Positions 507 to 58,592 of a DNA stretch of 62,095 nt are shown piece after piece (the stretch's first letter is position 1; the number at the start of each line of letters is the position of its first letter). The notes beneath the pieces were generated by a model. The model worked only from the letters and a program-made list of their open reading frames with translations, ran no database searches and was not told where the DNA came from. The position numbers and the translations under genes were made by a program. Origin of the DNA: a virus (taxonomy: Duplodnaviria > Caudoviricetes); the IMG/VR virus record IMGVR_UViG_3300030427_000031, positions 1 through 62,095 of that record. One strand, written 5' to 3'.

Positions 507-568
507 TTTGGTATGCTAATACCAAAATTCAAAAAGAGCTTGACATTATTATTTGGGTGTGATATTCT
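507..568 (+). promoter_or_regulatory. SigA-type promoter of the RM operon with an upstream palindrome
   Basis: TTGACA (540-545), 17 nt spacer, TG-extended TATTCT (563-568); TTTGGTAT-N4-ATACCAAA at 507-526. Confidence 0.65.
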
Positions 569-610
569 TAGTACAGTTAAAGAAGTAAATTGAACCAAAG
601 GAGGTAAAAC

Positions 611-2215
611 ATGACTAATGCGACCTTTGAGTATATGAATCTTTTCAGAGGGTATATGGGGATCGACTCCTACGTTCCTGCTGCGCTTCTTGTGGCTGAA
701 ACTAAGGAAGAATGCCAGAGCAGAAAAATGTCAGATGGGTCAGAAGATCGCATCTACGAGACGATGCTCTCGGTGGCTGATAGGCTTAATATCGTAAATC
801 CATTTAAGGACAAGGAACAATTTGTCCGAATATATAAAGCATACGGTGATTTCACTGGAGAACTCGATTGGGAAATGATGATGGCTGAGAGCACCAAAGG
901 GTTTAGATACTCAGCAATATCTAACGCCCTATTTAAGGAGTACAATAATCACTTTAAACTTGATGCCGATGAAGTTCTTATTGCCGAAGGTGAAAAATTC
1001 ATCCCTAACCTGAAAAGGCTTGTTGATGAACATCCTGGCTGCAGCTTTACCATCACGACTGAAAATACAATCAGCCATCAAGTAATTAACAGGATTTTTG
1101 CTGGTTATGAGAATGTAGAGATATTGAATGCCAGCATATATCAGTATGGCTTTACAAACAAGCGGTACGACCTCATTTTCTCTGTTCCTAACTTTGGAAC
1201 AAGAAACCTTGTAGAAGATGAGAACTTCATGTGCAGAGATCAAGATGCTGTAGCACTTGAAAACCTGCTTCTTCATACAACCGGTGGCGGTGAGCTTGTA
1301 ATAACGATGCCTGCAAGAATCACATACGCTCAGGGAAAGAATGGTGAGCTTAGGAGGTTTGTGCAGCAGACTTACCGTGTTAAGGAAATCGCTGAGCTTC
1401 CGGAGGGAACCTTTGAAGGCACAGGAATTAAAACCTACCTCATTGATGTTGTCAATACTAAGCCGGGTGATGATGATGTAATAGTTCGTCGTTACAAAGC
1501 TGAGAATCGTAAAAACAGACGTGACACAGCTGGAGAACTTATTATTGAAGAAGAGACATTTGTTATGTCTGATGAACTCGAGGAGCTTGGTGACTGGAAC
1601 ATAAATAAAATATTCTCACAGCAGGATGAAGAATGGGTTAAATTTCAGGAGTCTTCTGTTCGCAGAATGGCTCTGGGAGATATCGCAGAAATCTTCCGTG
1701 GAAAATCAGTAGCAAAGAAAGACCCGACTGGAAGTATCGGAGTTGTAAATATCTCCAACATTGGCGAGTACGATATCAGCTACGACAGTCTGGACCATTT
1801 AGATGAAGAAGAACGGAAGGTTACGAACTACCTACTAAAAGAAGGCGACGTACTAATCCCCGCGAGAGGTACTGCAATCAGAACTGCAATATTTCATGAG
1901 CAAAGTTACCCTTGCATTGCTTCATCAAATGTCATTGTTATTCGTCCGGAGCCAAAGATGCTTAACAGCACTTACCTTAAGCTATTCTTAGACAGTCCTC
2001 TTGGTGAAAAGATGATAAGCGGAGTGCAGCAAGGAATAACAATTATAAACATCAGCTACAAAGACCTTAAGGTGTTAGAAATTCCTCTTCCTTCTATCGA
2101 GGAGCAACAGCAAAAAGCTGATGAATATACAAATGAATTGAGAATTTATAAAGACACCATCGCAGCTGCTGAAAAGCGCTGGAATGAGGTCGTAAATATG
2201 TTACGAGAATTTTAA
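611..2215 (+). CDS. Degenerate HsdM-like (N6-MTase fold) domain fused to a single HsdS-type TRD
   Basis: YDLIFSVPNFG where NPPF/Y is expected; ELPEGTFEGTGIKT is HsdM-like; C-terminus LGDIAEIFRGK...GDVLI...IPLPSIEEQQ is a TRD plus conserved helix. Confidence 0.7.
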   Translation: MTNATFEYMNLFRGYMGIDSYVPAALLVAETKEECQSRKMSDGSEDRIYETMLSVADRLNIVNPFKDKEQFVRIYKAYGDFTGELDWEMMMAESTKGFRYSAISNALFKEYNNHFKLDADEVLIAEGEKFIPNLKRLVDEHPGCSFTITTENTISHQVINRIFAGYENVEILNASIYQYGFTNKRYDLIFSVPNFGTRNLVEDENFMCRDQDAVALENLLLHTTGGGELVITMPARITYAQGKNGELRRFVQQTYRVKEIAELPEGTFEGTGIKTYLIDVVNTKPGDDDVIVRRYKAENRKNRRDTAGELIIEEETFVMSDELEELGDWNINKIFSQQDEEWVKFQESSVRRMALGDIAEIFRGKSVAKKDPTGSIGVVNISNIGEYDISYDSLDHLDEEERKVTNYLLKEGDVLIPARGTAIRTAIFHEQSYPCIASSNVIVIRPEPKMLNSTYLKLFLDSPLGEKMISGVQQGITIINISYKDLKVLEIPLPSIEEQQQKADEYTNELRIYKDTIAAAEKRWNEVVNMLREF

Positions 2216-2229
2216 TTGGAGGTGCTATT

Positions 2230-4647
2230 TTGTTAGGAGCTATTATCGGGGACATTGTTGGTTCCCGTTTCGAATGGAATAATAACAGGAGCAAACAGTT
2301 TGACTTCCTGACTTATAAATGCAGTGTTACAGATGACTCCATCATGTCATTAGCAATAGCTAGAGCTCTGTTGGAAAGTAAAGCTGATTACAGCGATCTA
2401 TCTAAAAATGCAGTGAAGTATATGCAAGGTATTGGAAGGCACTATCCGAATTGTGGGTATGGTGGCCGATTCAGAGATTGGATACATTCTGATAATCCAA
2501 AGCCTTATAATAGCTACGGAAATGGGTCAGCAATGCGTGTCAGCGCGTGTGGCTTCGTGGCCAACAGCCTGGAAGAAGTTAAAAAGCTATCAAAAGCAGT
2601 GACAGAAGTAACTCACAATCATTCGGAAGGCTTAAAAGGTGCTGAAGCAACAGCAGTTGCTATCTTTCTTGCCCGCTCAGGAAAGAACCTACTAGAGATT
2701 CGTGATTATATAACGAAGAACTATTATCCGCTGAACTTTACGCTTGATGGAATTCGCGACAGCTACGAGTTTAACGAGAGCTGCCAAGATACAGTGCCTC
2801 AAGCACTGGAAGCCTTCTTCGAGTCAAAGAATTTTGAAGATGCAATCCGTAATGCAATATCAATTGGAGGCGACAGTGATACCCTTGCAGCTATTACAGG
2901 AGGCATCGCAGAAGCCTATTACGGGATACCTACAGAAATCAGAAAACACGCTCTGACATTCCTTGATGAGCGTCTACTTAAGATAATTGTAGAGTTTGAA
3001 AACAAGTATCCATCAAAGATGGAAAAACTCAATGTCGATGGTAGTGTTTGCATTGAAAGGAGCAAAGAAACTAAGGTAGAGACTGGAGATCGAAACGCTA
3101 TGATACAGTCATCTGTAGAAACAGCAGATAAAGAATTAAAAGATTCTATTCCAACAAACAAAGAAATAACTAGCCAGCAGTTATTTAATCACCTTTTTGA
3201 GGCTTGCAATATTCTTCGTGGACCAATAAACCAAGATGAGTACAAAAGCTATGTGACTCCTATTCTTTTCTTCAAGAGAATTAGTGATGTCTACGACGAA
3301 GAAACACAAGATGCTCTTGAGCGCTCTGGAGGCGATGAAGAATATGCCAGTTTTCCAGAAAACCACAGCTTTGACATCCCTGAAGGATGCCACTGGCAGG
3401 ATGTCCGTGAAGCAAGTGAAAACGTAGGTGTCGCAATCGTAAAAGCGATGAATGGAATTGAACGTGCAAATCCAGATACATTAAGCGGTGTGTTCAGCAG
3501 TTTCGATGATGCCAACTGGACTGACAAAACGAAGCTATCCGACGAACGACTCAAAAACCTCATTGAGCATATGTCCAAAATAAAAGTCGGTAATACAAAC
3601 TATTCTGCAGATGTTATGGGCGATAGCTACGAATTTCTTATTAAGAAGTTTGCTGACCTGTCAAAGAAGAATGCAGGTGAGTTCTATACCCCACGTTCCA
3701 TTGTAAAACTTCTTATCATGCTGTTGGCTCCCCAGATCGGAGAAACAGTTTATGACCCCGCTTGCGGAACCGGTGGCATGTTAATTGAAGCCATCCGCTA
3801 TATGAAAGGTGATAAATTGACATACGGTCGCATCTATGGTCAAGAGAAAAACCTATCAACATCCGCAATTGCTCGTATGAATCTGTTCTTACATGGTGCA
3901 AAGGACTTCAAGGTAACACAGGGCGACACTCTTCGCTTTCCAAATTATCATGATGGCGGCAAATTGAAAACTTTTGACTGTGTCGTTGCTAATCCGCCTT
4001 TTTCTCTGAAGAGCTGGGGCGCCGAACAGTTCAGTTCAGATATTTATGGTCGAAACATGTGGGGATGCCCATCGGATTTAAATGCCGACTATGCATGGTT
4101 ACAACACATGGTGAAGTCTATGAATCAGAAGACCGGTCGATGTGCAGTTGTTCTGCCGCAGGGCGTGCTATTCCGCAGTGGCAAAGAAAGCGAAATTCGT
4201 AAGCAGCTTGTTGAATCGGATAAGTTGGAATGCGTTATTACATTGGTAGGTGGTGTCTTCTATTCCACCGGTGTCTCGGCATGTATTCTTCTTCTTAATA
4301 ACCATAAAAAGAATGAGCACAAGGGGCGCATCTGCATGATCGATGCCTCCGACATCTATACCGCACAGCGGGCACAAAACATCATGACTGACGATGATAT
4401 TAACAAGGTATTCAAATTCTACGCCGACTACAAGGATGTCATCGAAAATGTGAAGGTTGCCACTATCCCCGATGTAAGAGAAAAAGACTACACCTTAGAC
4501 ATTAAAAATTATATCGAAAAGAAAGAACAAGAAATCGTCCCTCCGGCAGAAGTGCGCAGGCAATACTTCGAAGCCTTCGATGAAATGCTGGAAGCCGAGG
4601 AAACAATGAGAAATCTTCTCATGGAAGGAGGATATGTCAATGAGTAA
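2230..4647 (+). CDS. hsdM: ADP-ribosylglycohydrolase (DraG/ARH) fused to Type I HsdM (NPPF, predicted m6A)
   Basis: N-terminus GAIIGDIVGS, TDDS, GNGSAMR, THNH, GGDSDT; C-terminus GEFYTP, DPACGTGG, NPPF; single uninterrupted frame, TTG start after GGAGG. Confidence 0.88.
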   Translation: MLGAIIGDIVGSRFEWNNNRSKQFDFLTYKCSVTDDSIMSLAIARALLESKADYSDLSKNAVKYMQGIGRHYPNCGYGGRFRDWIHSDNPKPYNSYGNGSAMRVSACGFVANSLEEVKKLSKAVTEVTHNHSEGLKGAEATAVAIFLARSGKNLLEIRDYITKNYYPLNFTLDGIRDSYEFNESCQDTVPQALEAFFESKNFEDAIRNAISIGGDSDTLAAITGGIAEAYYGIPTEIRKHALTFLDERLLKIIVEFENKYPSKMEKLNVDGSVCIERSKETKVETGDRNAMIQSSVETADKELKDSIPTNKEITSQQLFNHLFEACNILRGPINQDEYKSYVTPILFFKRISDVYDEETQDALERSGGDEEYASFPENHSFDIPEGCHWQDVREASENVGVAIVKAMNGIERANPDTLSGVFSSFDDANWTDKTKLSDERLKNLIEHMSKIKVGNTNYSADVMGDSYEFLIKKFADLSKKNAGEFYTPRSIVKLLIMLLAPQIGETVYDPACGTGGMLIEAIRYMKGDKLTYGRIYGQEKNLSTSAIARMNLFLHGAKDFKVTQGDTLRFPNYHDGGKLKTFDCVVANPPFSLKSWGAEQFSSDIYGRNMWGCPSDLNADYAWLQHMVKSMNQKTGRCAVVLPQGVLFRSGKESEIRKQLVESDKLECVITLVGGVFYSTGVSACILLLNNHKKNEHKGRICMIDASDIYTAQRAQNIMTDDDINKVFKFYADYKDVIENVKVATIPDVREKDYTLDIKNYIEKKEQEIVPPAEVRRQYFEAFDEMLEAEETMRNLLMEGGYVNE

Positions 4648-6136
4648 GCGCATAACAATCGAAGAACTGCAGTCTTATTTATGGAACTCTGCTGTTCTTC
4701 TCCGTACTAGCATAGATGCCGGGGCCTATAAGCAATACATTTTTCCGCTACTGTTCTTCAAACGCATCTGTGACGTTTTTGATGAAGAGTGTCAAAGGAT
4801 CATAAAGGAATATGGTGACGAAGAAGCCCTGGAGTTTGAAGAAAATCACCGCTTTCAGGTGCCCAAAGGCGCCCATTGGAATGATGTTCGCGCGGTTTCA
4901 GAAAATGTTGGTGTTGCCATTGTAGACGCATTCCGTAAGATAGAAAATGCAAATTTAGATAAGCTGCAAGGCATTTTTGGTGATGGTGCTTGGACAAACA
5001 AGAATCGTTTACCAGATCGCCTGCTGAAAGAACTCATCGAGCACTTCAGCACAAAGACCTTGTCTATCGAAAACTGTCCTGAGGACGAACTTGGCCAGGG
5101 ATATGAATACCTGATCAAAAAATTTGCTGACGACAGCGGTCACACAGCTCAGGAATTCTATACGAATCGTACTGTAGTCCATCTGATGACAGAGATGCTC
5201 AAGCCAGAATCTGGTGAGTCAATCTATGATCCGACATGCGGCAGTGCTGGCATGCTAATCTCTGCTATTGCGTACCTACAGCAGCAGAAAAAAGAATGGC
5301 GCAACGTTGCTATTTTTGGTCAGGAAATCAACGTACTAACATCTGCTATTGGCAAGATGAATCTGTTTCTTCATGGTGTGAAGGACTTTGATATTGTAAA
5401 TGGTGACACACTGAAATCTCCAGCTTTCATTGAAAACGGAAAACTTAAACAATTTGATATGGTCCTTGCTAATCCGCCTTATTCTATTAGTCAGTGGGAC
5501 CGTGAAGCTTTTGCAAGCGATAAATATGGACGCAACTTCCTGGGTATCCCGCCGCAAGGCCGCGCCGATTATGCTTTCTTACAGCATATCTTGATGAGCC
5601 TAAAAAAGGATACCGGCCGTTGTGCAATACTTTTCCCACATGGAGTGCTGTTCCGCAACGAGGAAAGCAGTATGCGTGAAAAACTGGTTCGCAGTGATAT
5701 GCTCGAATGTGTCATAGGTCTAGGGCCAAACCTGTTTTACAATTCCCCAATGGAGGCTTGTATAATAATTTGCCGAACAAATAAGCGTCCGGAGCGTCGC
5801 GGTCAAGTTCTCTTTATTAACGCAGTCAATGAGGTGGAACGAAAGAATGCTCAGAGCTATTTGGAAGACAAACATATTAAAAGAATTGCATCAGCCTATG
5901 AAAAATATAAGACGGACGACAGTTTTGCCCGAGTTGTCACAATTCAAGACATCGAAGGCAACAATTTTTCGCTTAGTATACCTCTTTACGTTAAATATTC
6001 TGACCAAGAGACCGAAGCAGATGAGCGATCTCTCCAGGAACGTTACGAGAGCTGGAGAACACATTCAGAAATGATGAAACTTCGCTACATTAAATTAAAC
6101 AATATGGTTGGAAAGGAGGCTGAGTGCAATGAGTAA
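4640..6136 (+). CDS. hsdM: Second Type I HsdM (NPPY, predicted m4C)
   Basis: EFYTN, DPTCGSAG and NPPY motifs; start chosen by RBS spacing. Confidence 0.9.
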   Translation: MSKRITIEELQSYLWNSAVLLRTSIDAGAYKQYIFPLLFFKRICDVFDEECQRIIKEYGDEEALEFEENHRFQVPKGAHWNDVRAVSENVGVAIVDAFRKIENANLDKLQGIFGDGAWTNKNRLPDRLLKELIEHFSTKTLSIENCPEDELGQGYEYLIKKFADDSGHTAQEFYTNRTVVHLMTEMLKPESGESIYDPTCGSAGMLISAIAYLQQQKKEWRNVAIFGQEINVLTSAIGKMNLFLHGVKDFDIVNGDTLKSPAFIENGKLKQFDMVLANPPYSISQWDREAFASDKYGRNFLGIPPQGRADYAFLQHILMSLKKDTGRCAILFPHGVLFRNEESSMREKLVRSDMLECVIGLGPNLFYNSPMEACIIICRTNKRPERRGQVLFINAVNEVERKNAQSYLEDKHIKRIASAYEKYKTDDSFARVVTIQDIEGNNFSLSIPLYVKYSDQETEADERSLQERYESWRTHSEMMKLRYIKLNNMVGKEAECNE

Positions 6137-7250
6137 AGTGCATTTAGGAGACGTCGCCAAAGAGCGAAAAGAGACCTGTAAAGATAGTAAGAACGGATAC
6201 CCAATTGTTGGTCTTGAGCACCTGACCCCAGAAGAAATCACCTTGTCTGCCTGGGAGGAAGATAAAGAGAATTCTTTTTCGAAGTTGTTCCACAAGGGAG
6301 ACGTACTTTTTGGTCGCCGACGCGCGTATCTGAAGAAAGCTGTTGTTGCTCCTTTTGACGGTATCTGCTCCGGTGACATAACAGTTATTGAGGCCATCCC
6401 GGAGAAAATTCTACCAGAGCTACTGCCATTTATCATACAGAACGACGCCCTTTTTAACTACGCCACCAACAAATCGGCAGGCTCTCTCTCTCCCCGAGTG
6501 AAGTGGGAACATCTAAAAAACTACGAGTTTGAACTGCCTGATATGAAAAAACAGCGTGAATTAGCTAAAGTGCTTTGGGCTATGGATGCCACAAAGAAAT
6601 CCTACCAAAAGTTACTACAGAAAACTGATGAGCTTGTTAAATCCCGATTTGTTGAAATGTTCCATGATTGTCATCGAGAAAAGCTGGGTGATATATGTCA
6701 GATTAAAGCGAGAATTGGTTGGCAAGGACTGAAAAAAAATGAATATCTCAGTTCTGGGGATTATTTACTTGTAACTGGTGTTGATTTTGTAAAAAATCGT
6801 ATAGATTTTGAACACTGTTTTTATGTTGATAAGGAACGATATGAGCAGGACGAATACATTCAGTTGCAAGCAGGTGATGTTCTTATTACCAAAGACGGCA
6901 CCATAGGAAAAGTTGCTTTTGTTGAGGAAATACCCATGCCGGCTACACTCAATAGTGGAGTTTTCGTAGTAAGAGATTTATATGGTAAGGTTAGCAATTG
7001 GTTTCTGTACTACGCATTCATGACAAAAGAGTTTGAGACTTTCGTTGAAGGATGTAAGACTGGGTCAACAATAGCCCACCTGAATCAGGGAGCATTTATC
7101 AATTATGAGATCCCTGTACCTAATACTGCTATGCAGGAGGAGTTCGTTTTATTCGCCCGACAGAGCGATAAATCAAAATTTGAACTGGAACAAGCGCTTG
7201 CGGAGTTAACGACAACCTATAAGAAGATAATTTCCGAGAACCTGGGCTAA
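6129..7250 (+). CDS. hsdS: Type I RM specificity subunit
   Basis: Two TRDs (LGDVA..., LGDIC...) with helical spacers; lies between hsdM and hsdR. Confidence 0.9.
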   Translation: MSKVHLGDVAKERKETCKDSKNGYPIVGLEHLTPEEITLSAWEEDKENSFSKLFHKGDVLFGRRRAYLKKAVVAPFDGICSGDITVIEAIPEKILPELLPFIIQNDALFNYATNKSAGSLSPRVKWEHLKNYEFELPDMKKQRELAKVLWAMDATKKSYQKLLQKTDELVKSRFVEMFHDCHREKLGDICQIKARIGWQGLKKNEYLSSGDYLLVTGVDFVKNRIDFEHCFYVDKERYEQDEYIQLQAGDVLITKDGTIGKVAFVEEIPMPATLNSGVFVVRDLYGKVSNWFLYYAFMTKEFETFVEGCKTGSTIAHLNQGAFINYEIPVPNTAMQEEFVLFARQSDKSKFELEQALAELTTTYKKIISENLG

Positions 7251-7472
7251 GTCAAAACGGAAACTTGCTGAAGCCACATAAGATTACCCAGGCCGAACGT
7301 CCACTTGCACTTTTTATAATTGAAATAGCTCCAGCGAGATTCAGAAGAAAGAGCATTCAGTTCTCACAAGGATCACGCCGGATAAGATAATTAATTACGC
7401 TTTCTGCCCGGACCGACGTAATGAAGCTGTCCGGCACGGATATTAAAAATTTAATGATGGGAGGAAATGTTT

Positions 7473-10382
7473 ATGTTTAACGAAGATAATACAATGGAGC
7501 AGATGGTAATCTCGACTCTTAAAGGCAATGGCTGGAATTACATCCCCGCAGAAGAGCTACCTCGAACTTATTCTGATGTCATGGTAGAGCCTATGGTCAA
7601 AGACGCCCTTATCCGCCTTAATCCAGAAATAGCAGAAGACCCGTCACGCGCTGATGAGGTCATCTATAAACTGCGCACAATCATTCTGTCGGTACAGCCG
7701 CGTAACCTTATAACCCAGAACGAGCTCTTTAAGAAGATGGTGTTTGAAGAAAACTCCTATCCCTTTGGTAAAGATGGTCGGATGATTCCGATACGTTTTT
7801 TCGGCACAATGAAAAAGGAAGATCTAGCTCTTAACGAATATGTCGTCACTAACCAGTGGGTTTATCCTCAGGCAGAGGGCGGCAAGCGACTCGATATCGT
7901 TCTGCTGATAAATGGTTTTCCTATTGCTATCGGTGAGCTCAAGACTCCGGTCCGCAATGCGATAACCTGGTTAGACGCTGCCAGCGATATAGCTTCCTAC
8001 GAAAAGAGCATCCCTGAGATGTTCGTATCTAACGTATTCAACTTCGCTACTGAAGGTAAATGCTATCGCTATGGTTCTGTTGGAATGCCAATCAATATGT
8101 GGGGACCTTGGCATACTCCTGACCATAAGTCAGAAGGCAGCCTTGCCGATGTTAAAGTCAGCGTAGGTGATATGATTACACCTGAGAAGGTTATGGATAT
8201 TTTCCAGTTCTTTACCCTTTTTGCAACAGACAAAAAGCATGTAAAGTACAAGATTATCTGCCGTTATCAGCAGTATGAAGGTGCTAACCTTATCGTGCAG
8301 CGTGTTGTTGCTGGTTATCCTAAGCAAGGCCTTATCTGGCATTTCCAAGGTTCAGGAAAGTCGCTGCTGATGGTGTTTGCGGCGCAGAAGCTTCGAATGA
8401 TTCCTGAGCTTAAGAATCCGACCGTTGTAATAGTTGATGACCGTCTTGACCTTGAAACACAGATTACAGCAACCTTTAATGCTTCAGATGTTCCGAACTT
8501 AGTGTCACTTGCTACGAAGGAAGATGTTGAGAACTTCTTTAAACAGGATATTCGTAAGATTGCGATTACGACTATTTTCCGCTTTGGCGATGTTGATGGC
8601 GTTCTCAATCTTAGAGATAACATAATCATTATGGTTGATGAAGCACATAGAACTCAGGAAGGTGACCTCGGTGAAAAGATGCGTGCAGCACTACCCAATG
8701 CGTTCTTCTTCGGGCTTACAGGTACTCCCATTAATCGTATTGATAAGAATACATTCCGTACCTTTGGCGCAGCAGAAGACCGGAGCGGGTATTTGAGCCG
8801 CTATACCTTCTCTGACTCCATCAGAGATAATGCGACTCTACCGCTTAACTTTGAGCCAGTCCCGGTTGACCTTCATGTCGATAAGGATAAGCTAGATGCT
8901 GAGTTTGATGCTCTAACAGAAACACTTTCAGATGCAGACCGTGCAGAGCTTTCCAAACGCGTAAATATGAAGGCCATCATGTATGATCCTAAGCGTATCC
9001 GTAAGGTTTGTGAACACATCGTAAAGCACTACAAAGAGAAGATTGAACCTAATGGATATAAAGGTCAGATTGTTGTATTCGACCGTGAGTGCTGCCTTAA
9101 GTATAAGGAAGAGCTGGATAAGCTGCTCCCTCCTGAGGCAACTACAATTGTAATGGATACAAACAGCGATAAGGAAGACCGTTATAAGAAGTATCGCCGC
9201 AACCGTGATGAGGAAGGAAAGATTTTAGATCAGTTCCGTGATAAGAGCAATCCTCTGAAGCTGGTTATTGTTACTGCAAAACTTCTTACAGGTTTCGATG
9301 CCCCTATTCTTCAGGCGATGTATTTGGATAAGCCGATGAAGGACCATAACCTTCTACAGGCCATCTGTCGTACAAACAGAACTTATGATGAAGGAAAGAC
9401 TCATGGACTGATTGTAGACTATATCGGTATTTTCGATAATGTTGCTAAGGCTTTGGACTTTGATGAAGCCAGCATGAAGAAAGTTATCACCAACATCGAA
9501 GAAGTCAAGAAACAGGTTCCTGCGCTTCTTAGAAAGTGCCTCAGCTATTTTATGGGCGTTGACCGTACAGTTGAAGGCTGGGAAGGATTACTTGCCGCAC
9601 AGGAGTGTATTCCTACAAATAAGGATAAGGATGCGTTCGCAGCGGATTACCGTGTTCTTAATAGAGCCTGGGATGCGTTGTCCCCTGATCCATTTCTTGA
9701 TAAATTCAAATTTGACTATGTATGGCTCACTAAAGTTTATGAGTCTGTAAAACCGACTGACAACCGTGGTGCGCTTGTATGGGCAGCTCTTGGTGCTAAA
9801 ACGTTGGAGCTTGTTCACGCAAACATCGAAGTTGGCCAGGTTCATGATGATCTTGATATTCTTACATTAGACGCAGACCTGATTGACGAGTTTATCCGTA
9901 AGCAGAAGGATGTCAAGAAGACAACCATGAAGGTAGAGATTGACCTGGTTGCTAAGATTCGCGAACATACAAACGACCCTAAATTCGTAAAGCTAGGCGA
10001 GAAGCTCGAAGAACTTCGTGAACGGCATGAACAGGGCCTGATTAATAGCATTGAGTTCCTGAAGCTCTTGCTTGAACTCGCAAGAGAGGCAGCGCAGGCA
10101 GAGAAGGAAGTTGTACCGGAAGAAGAAATCGACCGTGGTAAAGCGGCGCTCACAGAGCTCTTTAAAGGTGCTAAGAATGATAAAACTCCTATCATTGTTG
10201 AGCGCATCGTTGCCGATATCGATGACATTGTAAAGATTGTACGTTTCGACGGCTGGCAAAGAACAACTACAGGTAAAAATGAAGTTAAGAAAGCGCTACG
10301 CAGTGTCATCTGGATTAAGTACAAGATTAAGGATAAAGAAGTATTCGATAAAGCTTATAGCTATATTGAACAGTATTATTAA
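7473..10382 (+). CDS. hsdR: Type I RM restriction subunit
   Basis: DIVLLING..ELK nuclease motif, WHFQGSGKS, DEAH, LTGTP, LLTGFD, QAICRTNR. Confidence 0.95.
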   Translation: MFNEDNTMEQMVISTLKGNGWNYIPAEELPRTYSDVMVEPMVKDALIRLNPEIAEDPSRADEVIYKLRTIILSVQPRNLITQNELFKKMVFEENSYPFGKDGRMIPIRFFGTMKKEDLALNEYVVTNQWVYPQAEGGKRLDIVLLINGFPIAIGELKTPVRNAITWLDAASDIASYEKSIPEMFVSNVFNFATEGKCYRYGSVGMPINMWGPWHTPDHKSEGSLADVKVSVGDMITPEKVMDIFQFFTLFATDKKHVKYKIICRYQQYEGANLIVQRVVAGYPKQGLIWHFQGSGKSLLMVFAAQKLRMIPELKNPTVVIVDDRLDLETQITATFNASDVPNLVSLATKEDVENFFKQDIRKIAITTIFRFGDVDGVLNLRDNIIIMVDEAHRTQEGDLGEKMRAALPNAFFFGLTGTPINRIDKNTFRTFGAAEDRSGYLSRYTFSDSIRDNATLPLNFEPVPVDLHVDKDKLDAEFDALTETLSDADRAELSKRVNMKAIMYDPKRIRKVCEHIVKHYKEKIEPNGYKGQIVVFDRECCLKYKEELDKLLPPEATTIVMDTNSDKEDRYKKYRRNRDEEGKILDQFRDKSNPLKLVIVTAKLLTGFDAPILQAMYLDKPMKDHNLLQAICRTNRTYDEGKTHGLIVDYIGIFDNVAKALDFDEASMKKVITNIEEVKKQVPALLRKCLSYFMGVDRTVEGWEGLLAAQECIPTNKDKDAFAADYRVLNRAWDALSPDPFLDKFKFDYVWLTKVYESVKPTDNRGALVWAALGAKTLELVHANIEVGQVHDDLDILTLDADLIDEFIRKQKDVKKTTMKVEIDLVAKIREHTNDPKFVKLGEKLEELRERHEQGLINSIEFLKLLLELAREAAQAEKEVVPEEEIDRGKAALTELFKGAKNDKTPIIVERIVADIDDIVKIVRFDGWQRTTTGKNEVKKALRSVIWIKYKIKDKEVFDKAYSYIEQYY

Positions 10383-10397: not shown

Positions 10398-12311
10398 ATG
10401 AAACAATATGCTTCGTTTGAAAAATATCTTGAGGATAAGTACTATAACGATATTCACCGTGCCATCACCGGCCTCATACTCAAAAGAGGCCGGAATAATG
10501 GCTTTTATTCATATACAGTTTTAGACCCATCCTACTTCCAGGTAGATGACATACATGTGAAAACAGTGTCCTTCCATTCTACAGACGGAAACCGGATTAT
10601 TTTCAACGCAGCAGTAGAGGCGGACGTTATTCTTAAGGGAATGGGTAAAAGGGATTATGACGCAGATGTGAATAATCCTTGGTACACTGTTTCTTTTACT
10701 GGTTATTTGAGTGATGGCCTTAATATGGTTACCATCACAGGTGTTGACGAATATTCTGCAGATAAGTTTGATAAGAACACGACACTATCAAAGTATCTAG
10801 TCCCTTATCTTTATGCTGAGGACATTGAGAAAGAAGCGGAAAAGTTTTTATACAAATACTGTAGACAAGCATTAAAGGAGCCTATGCCCATTCCGCTTGA
10901 TGAGCTCATGATTAATATGGGACTTGAGCTTTATGAGGCACCGCTTCCTGATAACATCTTCGGTAAGACTTATTTTGCGGAAGCTACAGTTGATGTTTTT
11001 AATGAGGATGGTGAGGTGGTATCACAGACCATTGATCCGGGCACCATTCTTTTGAATCCTAACATCTTCTTCATGCGCAACATCGGCTCCCGTAATAACA
11101 CAGTCGTTCACGAGTGTGTGCATTGGGACCGCCATGATAAGTTCTTTGAGCTGCAGAAGCTGTTAAACAGCGACCTCAGCTCCCTTACCTGTGAGGTTAC
11201 AGAACATATGGGTCAGAAAGATACTGGCATTGAGGGAGCACTTCAGTGGATCGAATGGCAGGCTAATGCCTTGACTCCGCGCATATTGCTCCCGGCAAGC
11301 ACTACAAGACAAAAGTTAAACGAGATATTGCTTCGTCTACATATTGAAAACCCAGAAAGAACTGAGTCAGATATCATGGAGGAGGCTATCCAGGAGTTGG
11401 CAGATTTCTTTGCAGTTTCAAAGTTTGCTGCAAAGCTTCGTGCCATTGAACTTGGCTTCTCGCAGGCGCAGGGTGTTTGGAATTATTTCAATGGTAAGTA
11501 TCTGCCTAGCTTCTCATTTAAGGCTACGGCGTTGAAGAAAGACGAGAGTTATATCATCGACACCAGAAACGCTTGCTTTGAGGCCAGCTTAGATGATGAT
11601 GTAAAGGCTGTACTTTCCAAGGGTGACTTCATTTATGTTGACAACATGTTCTGTATCAACGACGAGAAGTACATAATGGAAACCGAAGATGGCGGCTGTA
11701 CTCTTACTGTTTACGCCAGACAACATGTTGATGAATGCTGCCTTAAGTTTAAACAGAAGTTCAAAGTTAACAGCGCACATGGTGATGCCTTCTATACGCA
11801 GTGTTCTCTTTGCAAGGATGTCGATGCAGCAGCTTATTGCGAATGTAACTACATCGATGATGAAGATAATCAAAATGTAGAGCAGCGTGCTATTGAGTTG
11901 AAGAAGCTGAAAGTCGAAGGAGGCCGTGTCATGGAAATTTATCGTAGCCTTCCGATGTCTTTTTCAGGAACGCTTGATGCTCACATGAAACGCCTTGAAA
12001 AAGAGGATGGCAGAAAGATGACAAATATGGAACTTGCTTTAAGAACAGGACTAAGCGACCGATACATTCAGGACCTTCGTAAGGAAGAGAAGAATATAAG
12101 TCTCGGAACCGTTTGTGCTATTTGCATTGGCCTTCACCTGCACCCTATCTTCAGTAATGACCTCATACAGAAGTCACGCAATAATTATCCTATGAATGAA
12201 GAAGGCTTCTTCGATAGATTCCTCATTGAGCATCACTACATGGACACTCTTGATTTGTGTAATGAAAAGCTTGCAGAGTTGGGTTATCACACCTGGGGTA
12301 AGGAATTATAA
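10398..12311 (+). CDS. ImmA/IrrE-family metallopeptidase with C-terminal XRE-like HTH
   Basis: HECVH (HExxH) and EWQANAL..ILLP motifs; C-terminal TNMELALRTGLSDRYI. Confidence 0.75.
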   Translation: MKQYASFEKYLEDKYYNDIHRAITGLILKRGRNNGFYSYTVLDPSYFQVDDIHVKTVSFHSTDGNRIIFNAAVEADVILKGMGKRDYDADVNNPWYTVSFTGYLSDGLNMVTITGVDEYSADKFDKNTTLSKYLVPYLYAEDIEKEAEKFLYKYCRQALKEPMPIPLDELMINMGLELYEAPLPDNIFGKTYFAEATVDVFNEDGEVVSQTIDPGTILLNPNIFFMRNIGSRNNTVVHECVHWDRHDKFFELQKLLNSDLSSLTCEVTEHMGQKDTGIEGALQWIEWQANALTPRILLPASTTRQKLNEILLRLHIENPERTESDIMEEAIQELADFFAVSKFAAKLRAIELGFSQAQGVWNYFNGKYLPSFSFKATALKKDESYIIDTRNACFEASLDDDVKAVLSKGDFIYVDNMFCINDEKYIMETEDGGCTLTVYARQHVDECCLKFKQKFKVNSAHGDAFYTQCSLCKDVDAAAYCECNYIDDEDNQNVEQRAIELKKLKVEGGRVMEIYRSLPMSFSGTLDAHMKRLEKEDGRKMTNMELALRTGLSDRYIQDLRKEEKNISLGTVCAICIGLHLHPIFSNDLIQKSRNNYPMNEEGFFDRFLIEHHYMDTLDLCNEKLAELGYHTWGKEL

Positions 12312-48489: not shown

Positions 48490-48551
48490 AAGACTTGATA
48501 AATAAGGCACTTAGAGTGATGTATAGTACTGCAAGAAAGGAGGTTGAGACA

Positions 48552-50111
48552 ATGAAACGAATAACAAAGATTGAAGCAAATGAGAAACTGCAGAAGGCAC
48601 CTAAAAAACTGCGTGTTGCTGCCTACGCTCGTGTTTCAACAGATAGTCGCGAACAACTCGTCAGTTTGGATGCTCAAAGAAGTCATTATGAGACCTGCAT
48701 TAAGAGCAATCCCGACTGGGAGTATGTCGGACTTTACTATGATGAAGGCATATCCGGTACAAGCATGGCCAAGCGTGATGCACTTCTAAAAATGCTCGAT
48801 GATTGTGAAGCCGGTAAGATTGACTTTATTATTATCAAATCCATCAGCCGCTTTGCAAGAAATACCACAGAGTGCCTTGAAGCGGTTAGAAAGCTTATAA
48901 AGCTAAAAGTGTTCATTTACTTTGAGAAAGAAAACATCAACACCGGCGATATGGAGAATGAACTGCTGCTTACGATTTTTAGCAGCTTGGCAGAAAGTGA
49001 GTCTATTTCCCTTTCGGAGAATGAAAAATGGTCCATCGAGAAGAGATTTCAAAACGGAACATACATTGTTGCCTCTCCGCCTTACGGGTACAAAAACGAA
49101 GATGGCTTGATGGTGATCAATGAAGATGAGGTTGATGTAGTAAGGTACATTTTTGCAGAATGTTTAGCTGGTAAAGGCGGTCATGTAATCGCTAGAGATC
49201 TTAATGATAAAGGAATCCCAACCAGGCGAAAAAGAGAATGGACTCCGGGCACAGTAAATGCGATCCTTCGAAATGAAAAGTACAAAGGTGATGTGCTTTT
49301 TCAAAAAACATTTACCGATGAGACTTTCGTTAGGCATATCAATAATGGTGAGAAGGCGCAGTACTACGTTACTGAGCATCACGAAGCGATAATCAGTGTT
49401 GAGGATTTTGAAGCGGCGCAGGCCATGATTGACCAGCGCTCCAAAGACATGAAAATCAAGCAAGGCGATGCAAAGTATCAAAACCGCTATCCCTTTTCTG
49501 GAAAAATTGTTTGCGGCGAATGTGGTGCTACATGGAAAAGGAGAACTCATAGCGAATCGAAAATAAAATATTACGCTTATGCTTGCAACACACATCTTAA
49601 GAAAAAAGACCAATGTAGCATGCAGTTTATACGCGAAAAGAGTTTTGAAGTGGCTTTTTTGAATATGATCAATAAGTTGGCATTTACTAAGAAGGTGTTG
49701 TTGCAGCCGCTACTTACAAGTCTTAAAGCCATTAACCAGGAAGCAGCAATCGCCCGAATTAATAAGTTGGAAGCGGCTCTTGAGGCCAATTTCAACAAAA
49801 GGCAGCAGCTTATGAATTTATTTGCAAAGGAATATTTAGAGCCAGCTGTTTTCAACGATCAGAATTCAGGTCTTCTTGCTGAGGCTAAAAATTTAAGTGA
49901 TGAAAAAGAAGCCCTATATGCTTCGGTGAATCATGAGTACGAGCATGTTGAAGCTTTGAATAAACTCATCAAGTACGTCAACAGCTCAAGGATTTTTTCT
50001 GAATTTGATGTTGATGCATTTGAGGAGCATGTTGATTACATTATCGTTTTCAAAAGATATGAAATAGGTTTCGTATTAAAGTGTGGATTAACGCTAAGAG
50101 AAAGGTTGTGA
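48552..50111 (+). CDS. Large serine recombinase 1
   Basis: [25 protein letters not shown], zinc ribbon CGECG. Confidence 0.92.
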   Translation: MKRITKIEANEKLQKAPKKLRVAAYARVSTDSREQLVSLDAQRSHYETCIKSNPDWEYVGLYYDEGISGTSMAKRDALLKMLDDCEAGKIDFIIIKSISRFARNTTECLEAVRKLIKLKVFIYFEKENINTGDMENELLLTIFSSLAESESISLSENEKWSIEKRFQNGTYIVASPPYGYKNEDGLMVINEDEVDVVRYIFAECLAGKGGHVIARDLNDKGIPTRRKREWTPGTVNAILRNEKYKGDVLFQKTFTDETFVRHINNGEKAQYYVTEHHEAIISVEDFEAAQAMIDQRSKDMKIKQGDAKYQNRYPFSGKIVCGECGATWKRRTHSESKIKYYAYACNTHLKKKDQCSMQFIREKSFEVAFLNMINKLAFTKKVLLQPLLTSLKAINQEAAIARINKLEAALEANFNKRQQLMNLFAKEYLEPAVFNDQNSGLLAEAKNLSDEKEALYASVNHEYEHVEALNKLIKYVNSSRIFSEFDVDAFEEHVDYIIVFKRYEIGFVLKCGLTLRERL

Positions 50112-50115
50112 GATT

Positions 50116-50532
50116 ATGCCAATTCCATATGGGTACAAAATTGAGAAAGGCAAAGCTGTTATAGATGAAGCTCAAGCCGAGCAGGTTAGGATGATTTACA
50201 AAGGTTATCTTTCCGGCCTCGCCTACGTTGCTGCAGCAGAGGCCGCTGGGCTTACGATTCTACATCCAGGTGTAAAGAAAATGCTACAAAATAAACGCTA
50301 CCTTGGTGATAAATACTATCCTGCGATCATCGATCAGGAGACTTTTGATAGAGCTGAAGCAGAACGAATCAAACGTCAAAGAAGGCTTGGTAGAGTATTT
50401 GCGGATAAGCCGGTAGAGGAATGCAAGCCAGCGACAAAATTTACTATGCCGAAAGCAGGAAAGATTTTCATTGACCCATTTAAGCAGGCGGAGTACATCT
50501 ACAGCTTGATAGAAAGTGAGGTGGAGGTATGA
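50116..50532 (+). CDS. Recombinase DNA-binding-domain-only protein
   Basis: IPYGY...N.RYLG...YPAIID...F; no catalytic domain. Confidence 0.8.
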
Positions 50533-52103
50533 TCTCCTTAGCGAGTAATGTAACGGTTATTCCAGCAAAGAAAACCATCGGGACACAGAAAGCAACCGAC
50601 AAAAAGCAGAAAACCAGAGTCGCAGCATACTGTCGTGTCAGTACTGACAGCGATGAGCAAGAAACCAGCTATGAAGCCCAGATCCAGCATTACACCTCAT
50701 ACATTGAAAGTCATCCGGATTGGGTACTAGCCGGAATTTATGCCGATGATGGCATCTCTGGAATGAATACGAAGAAGCGTGATGAGTTCCAGCACATGAT
50801 TAACGACTGCAATGACGGCAAGATAGATATGGTGATTACCAAGTCCATCAGCCGGTTTGCAAGGAATACGGTGGATTGCCTGAATTACACCAGAGCCCTT
50901 AAGAATAAGAACATTGGCGTCTATTTCGAGAAAGAAAATATTAATACGCTCGATGCTAAGGGTGAAGTGCTCATGACAATTATGGCTTCTCTTGCACAGC
51001 AAGAAAGTGAGTCATTGTCGGCCAACGTTCGTCTGGGCTTGCAGTTCCGATACCAACAAGGAAAAGTTCAGGTCAATCACAACTGGTTCTTGGGATATAC
51101 CAAAGATGCAGACGGTCACCTCATCATTGATCCAGAGCAAGCCGAAGTCGTGAAGCGCATTTATAGAGAGTACCTTTCCGGTAAGAGCTTCTTACAGATA
51201 AAAAGGTCTCTTGAGGCCGACGGTATTCTAAACGGTGCGGGTAATGAAAAATGGCATGAAAGTAATATAAAGCAGATACTTACGAACGAGAAGTACATCG
51301 GAGACGCTTTGCTCCAGAAGACTTATACGGTGGATATTCTTGAAAAGAAGCGTGAAGCTAATAAGGGTCAGGTTCCTAAATATTATGTAGAGGACAGCCA
51401 TGAAGCTATTATTCCAAAGGATATCTTCCTAAAGGTACAGGAGGAAATCGCACGACGCGCAAATCTTACTAAAGGCACCACAAAGCGCAAACGAATCTAT
51501 AGTGGCCGTTACGCTTTATCTGGAATAGTTTTCTGCGCATACTGTGGCGACATCTTCCGCAGAATTAAATGGAACAATCGCGGGTGTAAGTCCACCGTTT
51601 GGCGCTGTGTCAGCAGAGTTGAAAAAGACGGCCCTGATTGCCCGGCAAGAACTGTTCACGAGAAATTGCTTCAGGAGGTAGTTATCAAGGCTATAAACGA
51701 AGCGTTCCGTGAAAAGGAAGCAATCCTGCCACTTTTACGAGAGAATATCGAGAGTAGCCTTGAGGAAGTCACCTCAAATCAGATTGCAGCGATTGATGAA
51801 CAAATGAAGTCAATGCAGCAGGAGCTAATGGCAACCGTTAATTCAAAGAATACCGGTGATGAGCTTGGTCTGGAGATTAGGAGGCTGCGCGATGAGAAGC
51901 AGGCCCTACAAAATGAGCAGGCATCCCGTCAGGATCTGAAAAAGCGAATTGATGATTTGATGCGTTTTCTTAACGACCTGCCTTGTGAGCTGATTGAATA
52001 TGAAGAAGATTATGTGAGGACTCTCCTGGAAAAGATAACGGTTTACGACGACCACATCATAGTTGAATTTAAGTCCGGAATTGAAATCCAAATTGACGAA
52101 TAA
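50529..52103 (+). CDS. Large serine recombinase 2
   Basis: [26 protein letters not shown]...WRC. Confidence 0.92.
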
Positions 52104-53159: not shown

Positions 53160-53562
53160 ATTTGATATTTTGGTGAAATACATACCTATAATTCAGGCGG
53201 ATGGCATCGGTGAATGGGTTGTTGATAAAGAAAACGATGGAACACCGGAACATCCGATACAGATGCCTTTTGTAGATTATTCCGAAATGGTACATAACTT
53301 TATCGATGATGTTTATGCCTTTGAAGAAAGCAATAAAGATATGGAGCTTACCCGTTATGGAGATATTCTCAAAGATAACGGACTTGAATGGGATTCAGAA
53401 TCTATGGAAAATGCTGATGTTTCAAACTTGAACGCACAGTGTGTTCTTGCACTGATTATGGGTGCAGTAAGAGCTGAGCGTTTTTGCGATGGTGCATTAT
53501 TAGATTTCTTCAAGAATGGCTGCATATTGAAGTGGCTTGAAAGATTAAACAGTATTGAGTAA
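53152..53562 (+). CDS. DUF6508-like protein
   Basis: RAERFCDG.L.....G.I.KWL.RL. Confidence 0.65.
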   Translation: MSRFDILVKYIPIIQADGIGEWVVDKENDGTPEHPIQMPFVDYSEMVHNFIDDVYAFEESNKDMELTRYGDILKDNGLEWDSESMENADVSNLNAQCVLALIMGAVRAERFCDGALLDFFKNGCILKWLERLNSIE

Positions 53563-53575
53563 AGGAGGTTTGACT

Positions 53576-55201
53576 TTGGATATTAACAAAATTAAAGCTC
53601 TACCGTATGATGAACTGCGTGCTTTATATAAGAACTTCCTACATAGCCAGAACATTTCGATAGCAACAATCAATACTGCTTATGTGGACACCTTCTACCT
53701 TTGGAGGAAAGGAAGCAAAGATCTGTTCTGGAATGCGGTGAACGCTACTGATTTTGAGACTGAAGCAAAGAGTGCATTGATAAAAGCTCTTTCTGAGAAC
53801 TCGACCGGTAATGTCAATTCACTTGTTAGTGGTTACTTGTCTCATCTAAGAAGGTTCCGCTTGTTTCTATCGTCAGATGAAACCATTGCTCCGGTTGAAT
53901 ATAAACAAAAAACCGCAGTAAAAGTAAAGCCAACACATATGAGCCGTGAAATAATAATTAACAAAATGTATGTTGGAGCATATTTGTCAGAGGGCGATAA
54001 TATAGGTCATGAAATCATAAATCTCTATAAGGCAGATGATGGGAAAAACTATATTTATCTCAATTCACAAGGAACAATAGAATTATCTCATGGAGAAAAT
54101 AGAATAACTATTCTGTTGGTACGAAAATTTGCCTCGAAAACATATAAAGTACTAGCCAAGGCAGAGGGGGTTACAATTCTTGATTTTGCCGACAGCAAAC
54201 TTCCGCGAGAAGAGAGATATAAAGGACAAGTTGCATTAGGACTGACCTATGGCGGAATAAGTCTTGTAGATTTATTTAATGAAAACTCGTATCATGGAAG
54301 TCTTCAAGAAGAAAAGAATGCTTATACTACCTTTGTTGCAGATAAGGTTATCAAGCCCAAAAATCAGATATATATTACAGATGATGCATCTGTAAGTGGT
54401 GACAACACTTATTTCATCCGTACTAATAAAGGATTTGGCAAACAAACATTAAGGGAATTCTACAACGAAAATGAAAAGCCGGATTCTTTCGCTGATTTGA
54501 ATCAGATAATTGAAAACAGAGAGTTGTGGGAAGATGCTAATACGACACAAGCAATTTCTGAATTGCCGGAACTTCAAAAAGATCCGTATTTCAATTTCCT
54601 AAAAATAATCAGGCAGGAAGACAATGAACTCGCTTTTTCAAATATGTTAGCTTACTTTTTTGATATAAACAGAGAAGCTTTTTCCCGTTTTGCAAGAGAG
54701 GTTCTAAATATAGAGGTACAAACAGATTTTACTATTGAGAGAGAAAAGAGAAACATTGACCTACTTATTTCTGACAAAAATAATGCCGTTGTAATAGAAA
54801 ATAAAATCAAATCGAGCATCAATGGTATTGATGACCGACATGATATCTACAGTGACCAAGTACAGTCACAGCTAAAAAAATACTATCAATTTGTTACATC
54901 TGATGATGAGTATCGCAATAAAACAGCGAGCTGCTTTATTTTTTCACCTAATTACAATCGCATTGACCTAAGTAAGTTTTCGTGCGGTGAAAAATATACT
55001 ATTGTTTATTACAGAGAAATCTATAATTTCTTTGTTGAGAACAGAAGCCGGTATGATGGGGTGCTTTACTTTGATGATTTCATTAAAGCAATGTATAAGC
55101 ACACCAAGGACTACGACAATGATTTAGAGGAAGAAATGCAAAGAAGATTTCAAAATACTATTTGCAATGCGAAAAAGGGGTATGGAGGCCATCAATTATG
55201 A
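53576..55201 (+). CDS. Multidomain protein with C-terminal PD-(D/E)XK nuclease
   Basis: ERE.RNIDLLI...VIENKI...QL.KY; TTG start after AAGGAGG. Confidence 0.75.
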   Translation: MDINKIKALPYDELRALYKNFLHSQNISIATINTAYVDTFYLWRKGSKDLFWNAVNATDFETEAKSALIKALSENSTGNVNSLVSGYLSHLRRFRLFLSSDETIAPVEYKQKTAVKVKPTHMSREIIINKMYVGAYLSEGDNIGHEIINLYKADDGKNYIYLNSQGTIELSHGENRITILLVRKFASKTYKVLAKAEGVTILDFADSKLPREERYKGQVALGLTYGGISLVDLFNENSYHGSLQEEKNAYTTFVADKVIKPKNQIYITDDASVSGDNTYFIRTNKGFGKQTLREFYNENEKPDSFADLNQIIENRELWEDANTTQAISELPELQKDPYFNFLKIIRQEDNELAFSNMLAYFFDINREAFSRFAREVLNIEVQTDFTIEREKRNIDLLISDKNNAVVIENKIKSSINGIDDRHDIYSDQVQSQLKKYYQFVTSDDEYRNKTASCFIFSPNYNRIDLSKFSCGEKYTIVYYREIYNFFVENRSRYDGVLYFDDFIKAMYKHTKDYDNDLEEEMQRRFQNTICNAKKGYGGHQL

Positions 55202-56211: not shown

Positions 56212-56229
56212 TAGATGGGAGGATATAAG

Positions 56230-57095: not shown

Positions 57096-57179
57096 TATGT
57101 TCCCACGAACAGTAAAACCGTTGATATATTTCCACATACCTCGAAAATGCTAAAAAACGGTTGACCTGTTTCCACTAAC
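57092..57179 (+). repeat. Three degenerate copies of the rlmD attB left half-site
   Basis: TTGATATGTTCCCACGAAC, TTGATATATTTCCACATAC, TTGACCTGTTTCCACTAAC versus host TGGACATGTTTCCGTGGAC. Confidence 0.7.
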
Positions 57180-57200
57180 GTATGGTTCAAAATTTCAGCG

Positions 57201-57278: not shown

Positions 57279-57327
57279 TAAAAATATCAACCCCTGTTGA
57301 TTTGCTTACTATTTGCCAACGTAATTT

Positions 57328-58563: not shown

Positions 58564-58592
58564 AATAACTTCATCCTTTCTTTTATTTTTTA

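Follow-up and report, generated by a model that had tools for sequence, protein, structure and literature searches.

We analysed a viral DNA stretch of 62,095 nucleotides (IMG/VR record IMGVR_UViG_3300030427_000031; hereafter the window) and found that its gene at positions 2230-4647 encodes, in a single frame, an ADP-ribosylglycohydrolase (ARH) domain joined to a methylase subunit of a restriction-modification (RM) system of Type I. We call this gene ARH-M1. The fusion is continuous in nearly all the homologous loci compared, appears to have arisen once and carries a hydrolase that is apparently complete in its catalytic residues. We tentatively read this hydrolase as an eraser, tethered to the RM complex, that would undo ADP-ribosylation inflicted by invaders. 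The gene and its parts are the following.

2218-2224, plus strand: Shine-Dalgarno sequence GGAGGTG, 5 nt ahead of the TTG start
2230-4647, plus strand: ARH-M1 fusion gene, a single frame of 805 aa (open reading frame listing and translation)
2230-3009, plus strand: ARH domain, aa 1-260 (Pfam, phrog_6572, ARH3, AlphaFold2 and fold matches)
3019-3147, plus strand: fusion-specific extension, with a beta-hairpin at aa 264-275 and a helix at aa 288-306 (AlphaFold2, partial conservation)
3100-3102, plus strand: internal ATG (Met291), a possible secondary start with a weak GGAG 11 nt upstream in the window
3148-3186, plus strand: flexible tether into HsdM_N, of low confidence (score below 50 for aa 308-341)
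3187-3573, plus strand: HsdM N-terminal domain, aa 320-448 (Pfam HsdM_N, E 2e-24)
3604-4533, plus strand: N6_Mtase catalytic domain, aa 459-768 (Pfam, E 6.6e-96), with the S-adenosylmethionine (SAM) motif DPACGTG and NPPF

The hydrolase and the methylase share one frame

The start codon of ARH-M1 is the TTG at 2230, 14 nt past the stop of the preceding gene; in 78 of 80 homologous loci the start is an ATG at the equivalent position. The Pfam family ADP_ribosyl_GH (PF03747) covered aa 1-233 (E 4.8e-36) with a score of 125.3 bits, above the curated cut-off of 26.2. The domain also matched phrog_6572 (E 1.5e-56), and its best match by sequence among solved structures was ARH3 (E 3e-14). The ARH motifs present in the window are G7-D8..G11, T34-D35-D36, G97-N-G-S-A-M-R103, T128-H129 and G214-D-S-D-T218. 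The binuclear-metal and catalytic residues E15, T34-D35-D36, T128-H129 and D215-S-D217-T218 align to the motifs of ARH3. We modelled ARH-M1 with AlphaFold2 from a 35-row alignment, with a mean predicted local distance difference test score (pLDDT) of 74.9 and a predicted template modelling score (pTM) of 0.46. In this model the ARH domain is an all-helical fold with block pLDDT of about 79-96, and Foldseek matched it to 1t5j, 5zqy, 6g1p and 3g9d at E of about 1e-8, proteins that include MJ1187, ARH3 and DraG. Like the PF03747 proteins ARH3, DraG, Tri1 and MJ1187, the domain has the fold, the TDD and DxDT motifs, the N-terminal Glu and the TH motif; unlike them, it is a short form of about 260 aa and is fused to a DNA methyltransferase. 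Because its scores were far under both NCBIfam equivalog cut-offs (67.9 bits against 337 for the DraG model TIGR02662, 44.9 bits against 490 for the Tri1 model NF041672), it is neither DraG nor Tri1. PADLOC had no model matching the ARH domain. We conclude that the domain has the full predicted catalytic set and is apparently a working enzyme.

In the methylase part, NPPF lies at aa 588-591 (nt 3991-4002). A first-pass annotation of the window, made from the letters alone, had described an in-frame fusion of ARH to an NPPF HsdM at 2230-4647, and the single 805-aa frame with its three Pfam domains bears this out; all the ARH motifs that it named, as well as NPPF, were found in the translation. 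Its placing of the HsdM start near nt 3166 was also right, since the two alignment-based starts are aa 316 (nt 3175, alignment to PDB structures) and aa 307 (nt 3148, alignment to M2).

The methylase part is a predicted PacII-type M1 subunit

Morgan et al. 2016 described a class of Type I systems that write both N6-methyladenine (m6A) and N4-methylcytosine (m4C), in which an NPPF M1 gene lies upstream of an NPPY M2 gene next to S, with M1 and M2 45-55% identical; their mutational data assign m6A to M1 and m4C to M2 (PMC5100572). The best PDB match of aa 316-802 of ARH-M1 was 7vru_A, which is PacII M1 (E 2.3e-135), followed by 7vru_B, its M2 (3.6e-119); M subunits of single-methylase Type I systems, with the EcoR124I M subunit next, ranked after both. 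Foldseek on the AlphaFold2 model returned the same order, with 7vru_A at the top and 43% identity to PacII M1. The methylase part of ARH-M1 is thus assigned, from these matches and its NPPF, as the M1 subunit (predicted m6A) of a PacII-type M1M2SR Type I system. The genes around it are the following.

540-568, plus strand: predicted sigma-70-like promoter, TTGACA-17-TATTCT, ahead of the operon (sequence reading only)
611-2215, plus strand: first gene of the operon, dMS, with a degenerate N6_Mtase-like domain and one target recognition domain (TRD) (Pfam Methylase_S 8e-15, N6_Mtase 1e-4)
4634-6136, plus strand: M2 subunit, NPPY, predicted m4C (Pfam; 46% identity to the M1 part)
6108-7250, plus strand: HsdS with two TRDs (Pfam Methylase_S in two stretches; PADLOC Specificity_I 7e-83)
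7467-10382, plus strand: HsdR of 971 aa (HSDR_N, SWI2_SNF2 and T1R_D3-like; PADLOC REase_I 5e-124)

This cassette resembles the PacII type in its two paralogous M genes, with the NPPF M1 5' of the NPPY M2, in an M2 next to S and in a typical HsdR; the 46% identity between M1 and M2 falls within the range of 45-55%, and PacII M1 is the best match in both sequence and fold. It departs from PacII in that M1 carries about 306 additional N-terminal residues (ARH, hairpin and helix) and in that the operon is led by an extra degenerate methylase-TRD gene. In dMS, motif IV reads SVPN, no SAM motif was found, and the feature matches in the Atlas were N6_Mtase clusters; the idea that dMS is a hidden transferase was ruled out, the protein being N6_Mtase-like. 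M2 has in-frame ATGs at 4634 and 4640. A GGAGGA at 4627-4632 precedes them by 1 nt and 7 nt respectively, and the better spacing makes 4640 the likelier start. The M1 stop at 4645-4647 overlaps M2, which suggests translational coupling.

The same arrangement recurred in homologous genome loci. NPPF was present in the M1 of 80/80 loci and NPPY in the M2 of 79/80, and M2 was directly 3' of M1 in 79/80. R was found in 59/80, 37 of them with R downstream of S and 22 with R immediately upstream of ARH-M1. A dMS homologue at 90% coverage or more preceded ARH-M1 in 39/80 genome loci and in most viral loci.

In the structure of PacII M1M2S with DNA (PDB 7vru/7vs4), the N-terminal domain of M1 is reported to help form the M1-M2 interface by which the clamp closes on DNA, and to move upon DNA binding (PMC9613975). 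Our search of the literature for the architecture covered main texts, mostly outside subscription journals. No description of an ARH-M1 fusion was found within that scope, although the supplementary tables of PMC5100572, or REBASE, might list such genes, and the words 'ribosyl' and 'glycohydrolase' are absent from the main texts of PMC5100572 and PMC9613975. The search thus agrees with the first-pass annotation, which knew of no characterised RM system of this architecture.

The fusion is conserved and has a single origin

We compared ARH-M1 with its relatives in protein clusters and in genomes. Among 8000 scored candidate clusters, 6478 were significant, and the best 120 of these all carried both PF03747 and PF02384, at 82-100% identity and 758-811 aa. 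Their lengths were almost uniform: 112 were of 805 aa, five of 806 aa, and the others of 811, 810 and 758 aa. Named sources were Bacillus cereus-group species, Lysinibacillus, Listeria innocua, Dehalococcoides, Anaerosphaera and Lachnospiraceae. With one genome per species, 252 genome loci held a relative, and the counts over loci given here refer to the best 80. These span the protein (79 at aa 1-805, one at 10-805) at 65-94% identity. Their hosts are Bacillota together with assemblies labelled Akkermansia, Sphaerochaeta, Synergistaceae, Deferribacteraceae, Proteiniphilum and Methanomicrobium mobile; since some of these assemblies are metagenome bins, the labels outside Bacillota are only as reliable as the binning.

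In 79/80 loci, an unbroken frame ran from the start of ARH through the whole of the best M1 segment. In 77/80 it was of at least 802 aa, and the three shortened frames were of 766, 703 and 622 aa. Contigs from independent sequencing confirmed the junction: in one independent metagenome run, contig X8 spans 600-6200 without a gap and with 18 substitutions, and in a second, an X9 contig bridges 2174-3332 and is gap-free at the junction. A fusion peculiar to one assembly, with a stop in the linker of its relatives, had been put forward in the first-pass annotation as the finding that would tell against it; what we found instead was a continuous frame in 79/80 loci.

Over 111 other homologues of 805 aa, mean identity to the window was 91% for ARH, 88% for the methyltransferase domain, 97% for HsdM_N and 75% for the linker. 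In 78 more divergent sequences, E15, T34, D35, D36, H129, D215, D217 and T218 were each kept in 73-78. Such conservation indicates that the ARH domain is under purifying selection, and among the loci the identity of the fused ARH to that of the window falls as low as 62%.

A FastTree phylogeny was built from 219 ARH domains. One branch, with support 95, set all 79 M1-fused rows apart from the rest, which amounts to one change of state. When viral rows were added, the 90 M1-fused rows among 298 formed one clade with no foreign row within it. Because the fused ARHs form one clade, the fusion arose once. No split pair of ARH and M1 genes was seen among the 92 loci examined. Full-length fusions were found in 0/145 GenBank phage records and 0/3560 PLSDB plasmid records; IMG/VR contigs do hold the fusion. 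In 400 sampled genomes of the phylum, two had the fusion (one of them broken) and 25 had a free-standing ARH of the same subfamily. Altogether, these comparisons point to a fusion that, after a single origin, is inherited and transferred along with its cassette and is kept across Bacillota and several other phyla.

The junction holds a hairpin and a helix

The model gives the hairpin (aa 264-275) and helix (aa 288-306) that follow the ARH domain a pLDDT of about 76-87. Across 78 sequences, the region of the helix shows partial conservation, with the pattern R-x-E-M-[IM]-x-S-A...A-D. Of the linker of about 50 aa proposed in the first-pass annotation, the length stood (about 55 aa) and the view of it as a plain linker did not: hairpin and helix are confidently predicted, and only aa 308-341 fall below 50.

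The internal ATG lies in this helix. Met291 was kept in 61 of the 78 sequences. At its column, 36/78 had a start codon with a Shine-Dalgarno-like motif of at least 5 nt placed 10-11 nt ahead, 27/78 had a start codon without such a motif and 15/78 had no start codon. Metatranscriptome contigs of relatives (X18 and X20) cover pieces of the stretch, which speaks for presence in an RNA library and not for a start site or a form of the protein.

Two IMG/VR contigs of the same phage family carry M1 without ARH, namely L109 and L111, whose identities to the M1 part are 78% and 71%. In each, the frame opens only about 10-12 residues ahead of a conserved EETTSQ stretch, and hairpin and helix are missing. 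An M1 tree rooted with M2 placed L109 inside the fused clade, where the clade that encloses it has 83 rows and support 96; its lack of ARH is therefore a secondary loss. L111 could not be placed because of its short length. A further candidate for an unfused close relative, G360:C71 from the phylum sample, proved uninformative, being a frameshifted HsdM of high GC content whose identities to M1 (60%) and M2 (56%) are nearly equal.

The same ARH subfamily occurs in phage toxin pairs and ligase modules

An exhaustive profile-free search with the ARH domain gave 9726 cluster representatives at E up to 1e-3 and 1839 at E up to 1e-30. Among the best 150, 43 were free-standing (<340 aa) and 107 were fused to something else. 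Partners other than the methylase included DUF6508, SseB, protein kinase, HD, GNAT, flavodoxin, DUF1810, patatin, RecA and TnsA-like domains, and most had no Pfam match. For this gene, the first-pass annotation named neither this large and promiscuous subfamily, with its free-standing and phage copies, nor the identity of the HsdM as the M1 of an already characterised PacII-type class, nor the status of the cassette as prophage cargo.

At least 338 IMG/VR contigs encode the ARH subfamily, and the best 80 comprise 12 M1 fusions and 68 non-M1 loci. We looked for ADP-ribosyltransferase (ART) neighbours with a hidden Markov model seeded from one phage ART. A protein of the ADPrib_exo_Tox family was near the ARH gene in 16 of the 68 non-M1 loci; in 15 it was immediately upstream on the same strand at 60-400 nt, and in L156 it was further off. 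Pfam confirmed ADPrib_exo_Tox in 10/10 tested (E 1e-17 to 1e-24), and three of these ten were fused to Phage_portal_3 and NUDIX. In L134, L153 and L189, giant proteins combine portal, NUDIX and a C-terminal ADPrib_exo_Tox domain, and a free-standing ARH gene follows immediately. Such portal-NUDIX-ART loci with ARH look like a virion-delivered ADP-ribosyltransferase accompanied by its antidote. Two GenBank phages were checked as well. In Bacteroides phage Versailles, the portal gene has next to it the gene of an 869-aa protein with an ART at its end, and this gene converges on that of ARH; in a Porphyromonas phage, the minor capsid protein neighbouring ARH had no Pfam match. The ART-paired phage ARHs are of the same subfamily as that of the window (53-65% identity). 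No ADPrib_exo_Tox neighbour was found in the 12 M1-fused viral loci.

An ATP-dependent DNA ligase gene lay 0.4-1.8 kb upstream, on the same strand, in a further 16 of the 68 non-M1 viral loci. The module reads, on one strand, ATP-dependent DNA ligase, an open reading frame of about 200 aa and ARH (L140, L144, L148, L167, L171 and 11 more). This hints at a role in nucleic-acid repair for part of the subfamily.

The cassette lies at the left end of a prophage

At its start (7-237) the window has the 3' end of a gene for a tRNA/rRNA uracil-5-methyltransferase, and a terminator-like hairpin and the promoter come next; a homologue of the methyltransferase gene lay upstream of the cassette in 13/80 loci. 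Directly past HsdR is the following gene.

10398-12311, plus strand: 637-aa phage protein, phrog_4031 (full-length match), with a weak match to a CapP-like peptidase

Proteins of phrog_4031 were found repeatedly 3' of the RM cassette in genomes and viral contigs. Beyond the cassette come a family-A DNA polymerase, an exonuclease, an Enc34-type single-stranded DNA (ssDNA)-binding protein, a primase-helicase and a terminase, and further phage genes encode portal, major head and tape-measure proteins and two large serine recombinases. The phage genes that follow thus mark the cassette as cargo carried at a prophage's left end. Twelve IMG/VR contigs carry a relative of the fusion, nine of them at full length, and in most of the 12 the cassette stands beside homologues of the phrog_4031 protein, a sigma-like gene, the exonuclease, the ssDNA-binding protein, the polymerase or serine recombinases. 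The element is a temperate siphophage-like prophage and the cassette its mobile cargo; Type I systems of this class with a fused ARH travel on temperate phages and on other elements.

The two large serine recombinases stand in tandem at 48495-52103, near the right end of the prophage. Together with the end of the uracil-5-methyltransferase gene, they suggest site-specific insertion next to that gene. A comparison of the left end with the rest of the window for att repeats gave nothing convincing. Beyond the recombinases lie a protein of the PD-(D/E)XK nuclease family (53555-55201) and a tyrosine integrase on the minus strand (57328-58704); the GC content falls to 32-39% across 53555-58704, which may be a second island.

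A tethered eraser of ADP-ribosylation is tentatively proposed

Being covalently part of M1, the hydrolase would accompany the complex on DNA, be it as methylase (M1M2S) or as endonuclease (R2M1M2S). An ADP-ribosyltransferase brought by an invader would put ADP-ribose on the complex or on adjacent proteins, and the ARH would take it off, so that restriction and modification would stay working as foreign DNA enters. We favour this reading tentatively, as somewhat short of probable. The cassette encodes no cognate transferase (none was found in it by Pfam or PADLOC), and for this reason we see in ARH-M1 an eraser that lacks a writer of its own and would act on a modification from outside. An injected ART would be the most economical outside writer, because transferases of the R-S-E type are present in viromes and built into virion proteins, and because this ARH subfamily is their antidote. 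A more specific proposal, which we regard as doubtful, is that virion-delivered phage ARTs, fused to portal or head proteins, disable Type I restriction, by ADP-ribosylating the enzyme or DNA ends or bases, and that the ARH built into the M1M2 clade would repair the damage on the spot.

Related arrangements are known. An enzymatic ARH-type (ARG) immunity protein against ART toxins, Imm-ARG, was described by Zhang et al. 2012 (PMC3482391). These toxin-immunity pairs and the phage ART-ARH pairs share with ARH-M1 the ARH subfamily and an eraser that neutralises the product of an R-S-E type ART; unlike the window cassette and the 12 M1-fused viral loci, which have none, they have the writer next door, and their ARHs are not those nearest the M1 clade. 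Host systems centred on ARG domains have been predicted to act against viral ARTs (PMC9503650, section 3.8). Like ARH-M1, they would be erasers without a cognate writer that act on modifications made by invaders; unlike it, they are built round Nudix/WYL regulators, phosphatases and chaperones, and are described from Actinobacteria, Planctomycetes and Proteobacteria. The terms 'restriction-modification', 'methylase' and 'R-M' are absent from the main text of PMC9503650.

Several observations weigh against a tethered eraser of invader-made marks. An ARH-less M1 produced from the internal Met291 start is possible in part of the clade, and ARH is dispensable for M1, since L109, which is nested in the clade, has lost it. 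N6_Mtase was the partner in only 2 of the 94 ARH fusion representatives scanned. Free-standing ARHs had no recurrent neighbour: in 19 genomes, with 110 open reading frames and 132 Pfam families, no family occurred in more than three members, and as the list covers the first 25 of the 132 families, a lone ART is possible among the remainder. The ART-paired ARHs were not among the 78 tree rows nearest the M1 clade, and the independent ART cases are fewer than 16, because some loci are near-duplicates (L129/L130, L134/L135, L136/L137 and L153/L154). Searches of the window's own genome for DarT (PF14487), PF18760 and PF03496 gave no match, and since 14 control genomes were equally silent, these searches are weak negatives. 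In the literature searched, no transferase is reported to target a restriction enzyme. Finally, the target protected by the ARH may be the RM complex, neighbouring proteins or DNA.

Three points speak for a DNA-directed role and keep it in play: where the N-terminal domain of M1 lies at the clamp, the reported presence of DarTG within Type I operons, and the phage ARHs linked to ligases. The ARH would then strip ADP-ribose from bases or phosphorylated ends near the bound sites, leaving these readable, methylatable, translocatable and cuttable, or would clean the element's own DNA of DarT-type marks. ARH3, to which the domain is closest in sequence, is reported to remove ADP-ribose from phosphorylated DNA ends, and the ligase upstream in 16/68 non-M1 viral ARH loci would fit the cleaning of ends ahead of ligation. 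With the M1 N-terminal domain at the M1-M2 interface, a tether on the N-terminus would lie next to the DNA tunnel (PMC9613975). DarTG is reported inside Type I RM operons of E. coli and cyanobacteria (PMC8883491), and an ARH-like protein, DarG3 of DarHTG, has been proposed on structural grounds as antitoxin to a DarT (PMC13069673). The window cassette shares with these a link between ADP-ribosylation chemistry and Type I RM and, with DarG3, an ARH-fold eraser set against a transferase; unlike them, it has no DarT, macrodomain or toxin gene by Pfam or PADLOC, and its eraser is fused to M1 rather than a separate antitoxin. Against a role on DNA, the literature search found no ARH that reverses base-linked ADP-ribosylation of DNA, and DarT was not found in the window's genome (with the controls silent). 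Moreover, many of the ligase loci are related phages from one metagenome data set and not independent, and adjacency to a ligase is no proof of a common substrate. We therefore consider this role fairly unlikely.

A third explanation takes the ARH as a generic module against ARTs or for ADP-ribose clean-up that rides on an RM gene and shields the lysogen or the element from toxins of phages or competitors, the fusion serving co-expression only. The 25 free-standing ARHs against two fusions in 400 genomes of the phylum, the diversity of fusion partners, the loss of ARH with retention of M1 in L109 and the mobility of the cassette are all in line with it. It does not account well for a fused state of single origin that is kept in 90/90 tree rows and 77/80 full-length loci, down to 62% ARH identity, nor for a confidently predicted and partly conserved hairpin-helix that is specific to the fusion; a separate gene would suffice for co-expression, yet no split form occurred in the 92 loci. 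We think it unlikely.

Less likely by far is a sensor or regulator, in which the ARH would bind or hydrolyse a soluble NAD-derived molecule (ADP-ribose, O-acetyl-ADP-ribose or a cyclic ADP-ribose isomer) and tune methylation against restriction, for example in restriction alleviation at prophage entry. A tethered domain with a conserved helix of its own, beside an M1 N-terminal domain that moves on DNA binding, could serve such a purpose, and a wider range of substrates has been suggested for ARG domains (PMC9503650). However, no regulator-like feature was found (no test was aimed at one), the full catalytic metal site is kept, as expected of an enzyme rather than of a pure sensor, and the same source argues that phage ARGs prefer macromolecular conjugates. 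An artefact (a misassembly, a frameshifted gene pair or a decaying pseudogene) is hardly credible: the window does come from a metagenome-assembled genome of 98 contigs and 3/80 loci have shortened frames, but 79/80 frames are continuous, the independent runs are gap-free and the conservation is that of purifying selection.

Significance

Restriction enzymes are blocked by DNA mimics and by modification of DNA. Phage kinases have recently been reported to act on other defence systems (PMC13645617). ADP-ribosylation was not described as an anti-restriction weapon in the literature searched. A hydrolase that was gained once and is kept on the methylase subunit in many species and several phyla is indirect evidence for such a weapon, or for ADP-ribosylated DNA that meets restriction complexes. 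The structurally characterised PacII class gains an accessory domain, and the ARH subfamily appears as a mobile module common to host defence and to the ART-antidote pairs and ligase modules of phages. If the proposal that virion-delivered ARTs disable Type I restriction is true, ADP-ribosylation would be an unrecognised anti-restriction mechanism, and the M1M2 clade would hold the first restriction system with its own counter-counter-defence enzyme. That ADP-ribosylation is a weapon around restriction is a specific idea, as yet unexplored, and a point mutant in the clonable cassette would put it directly to the test.

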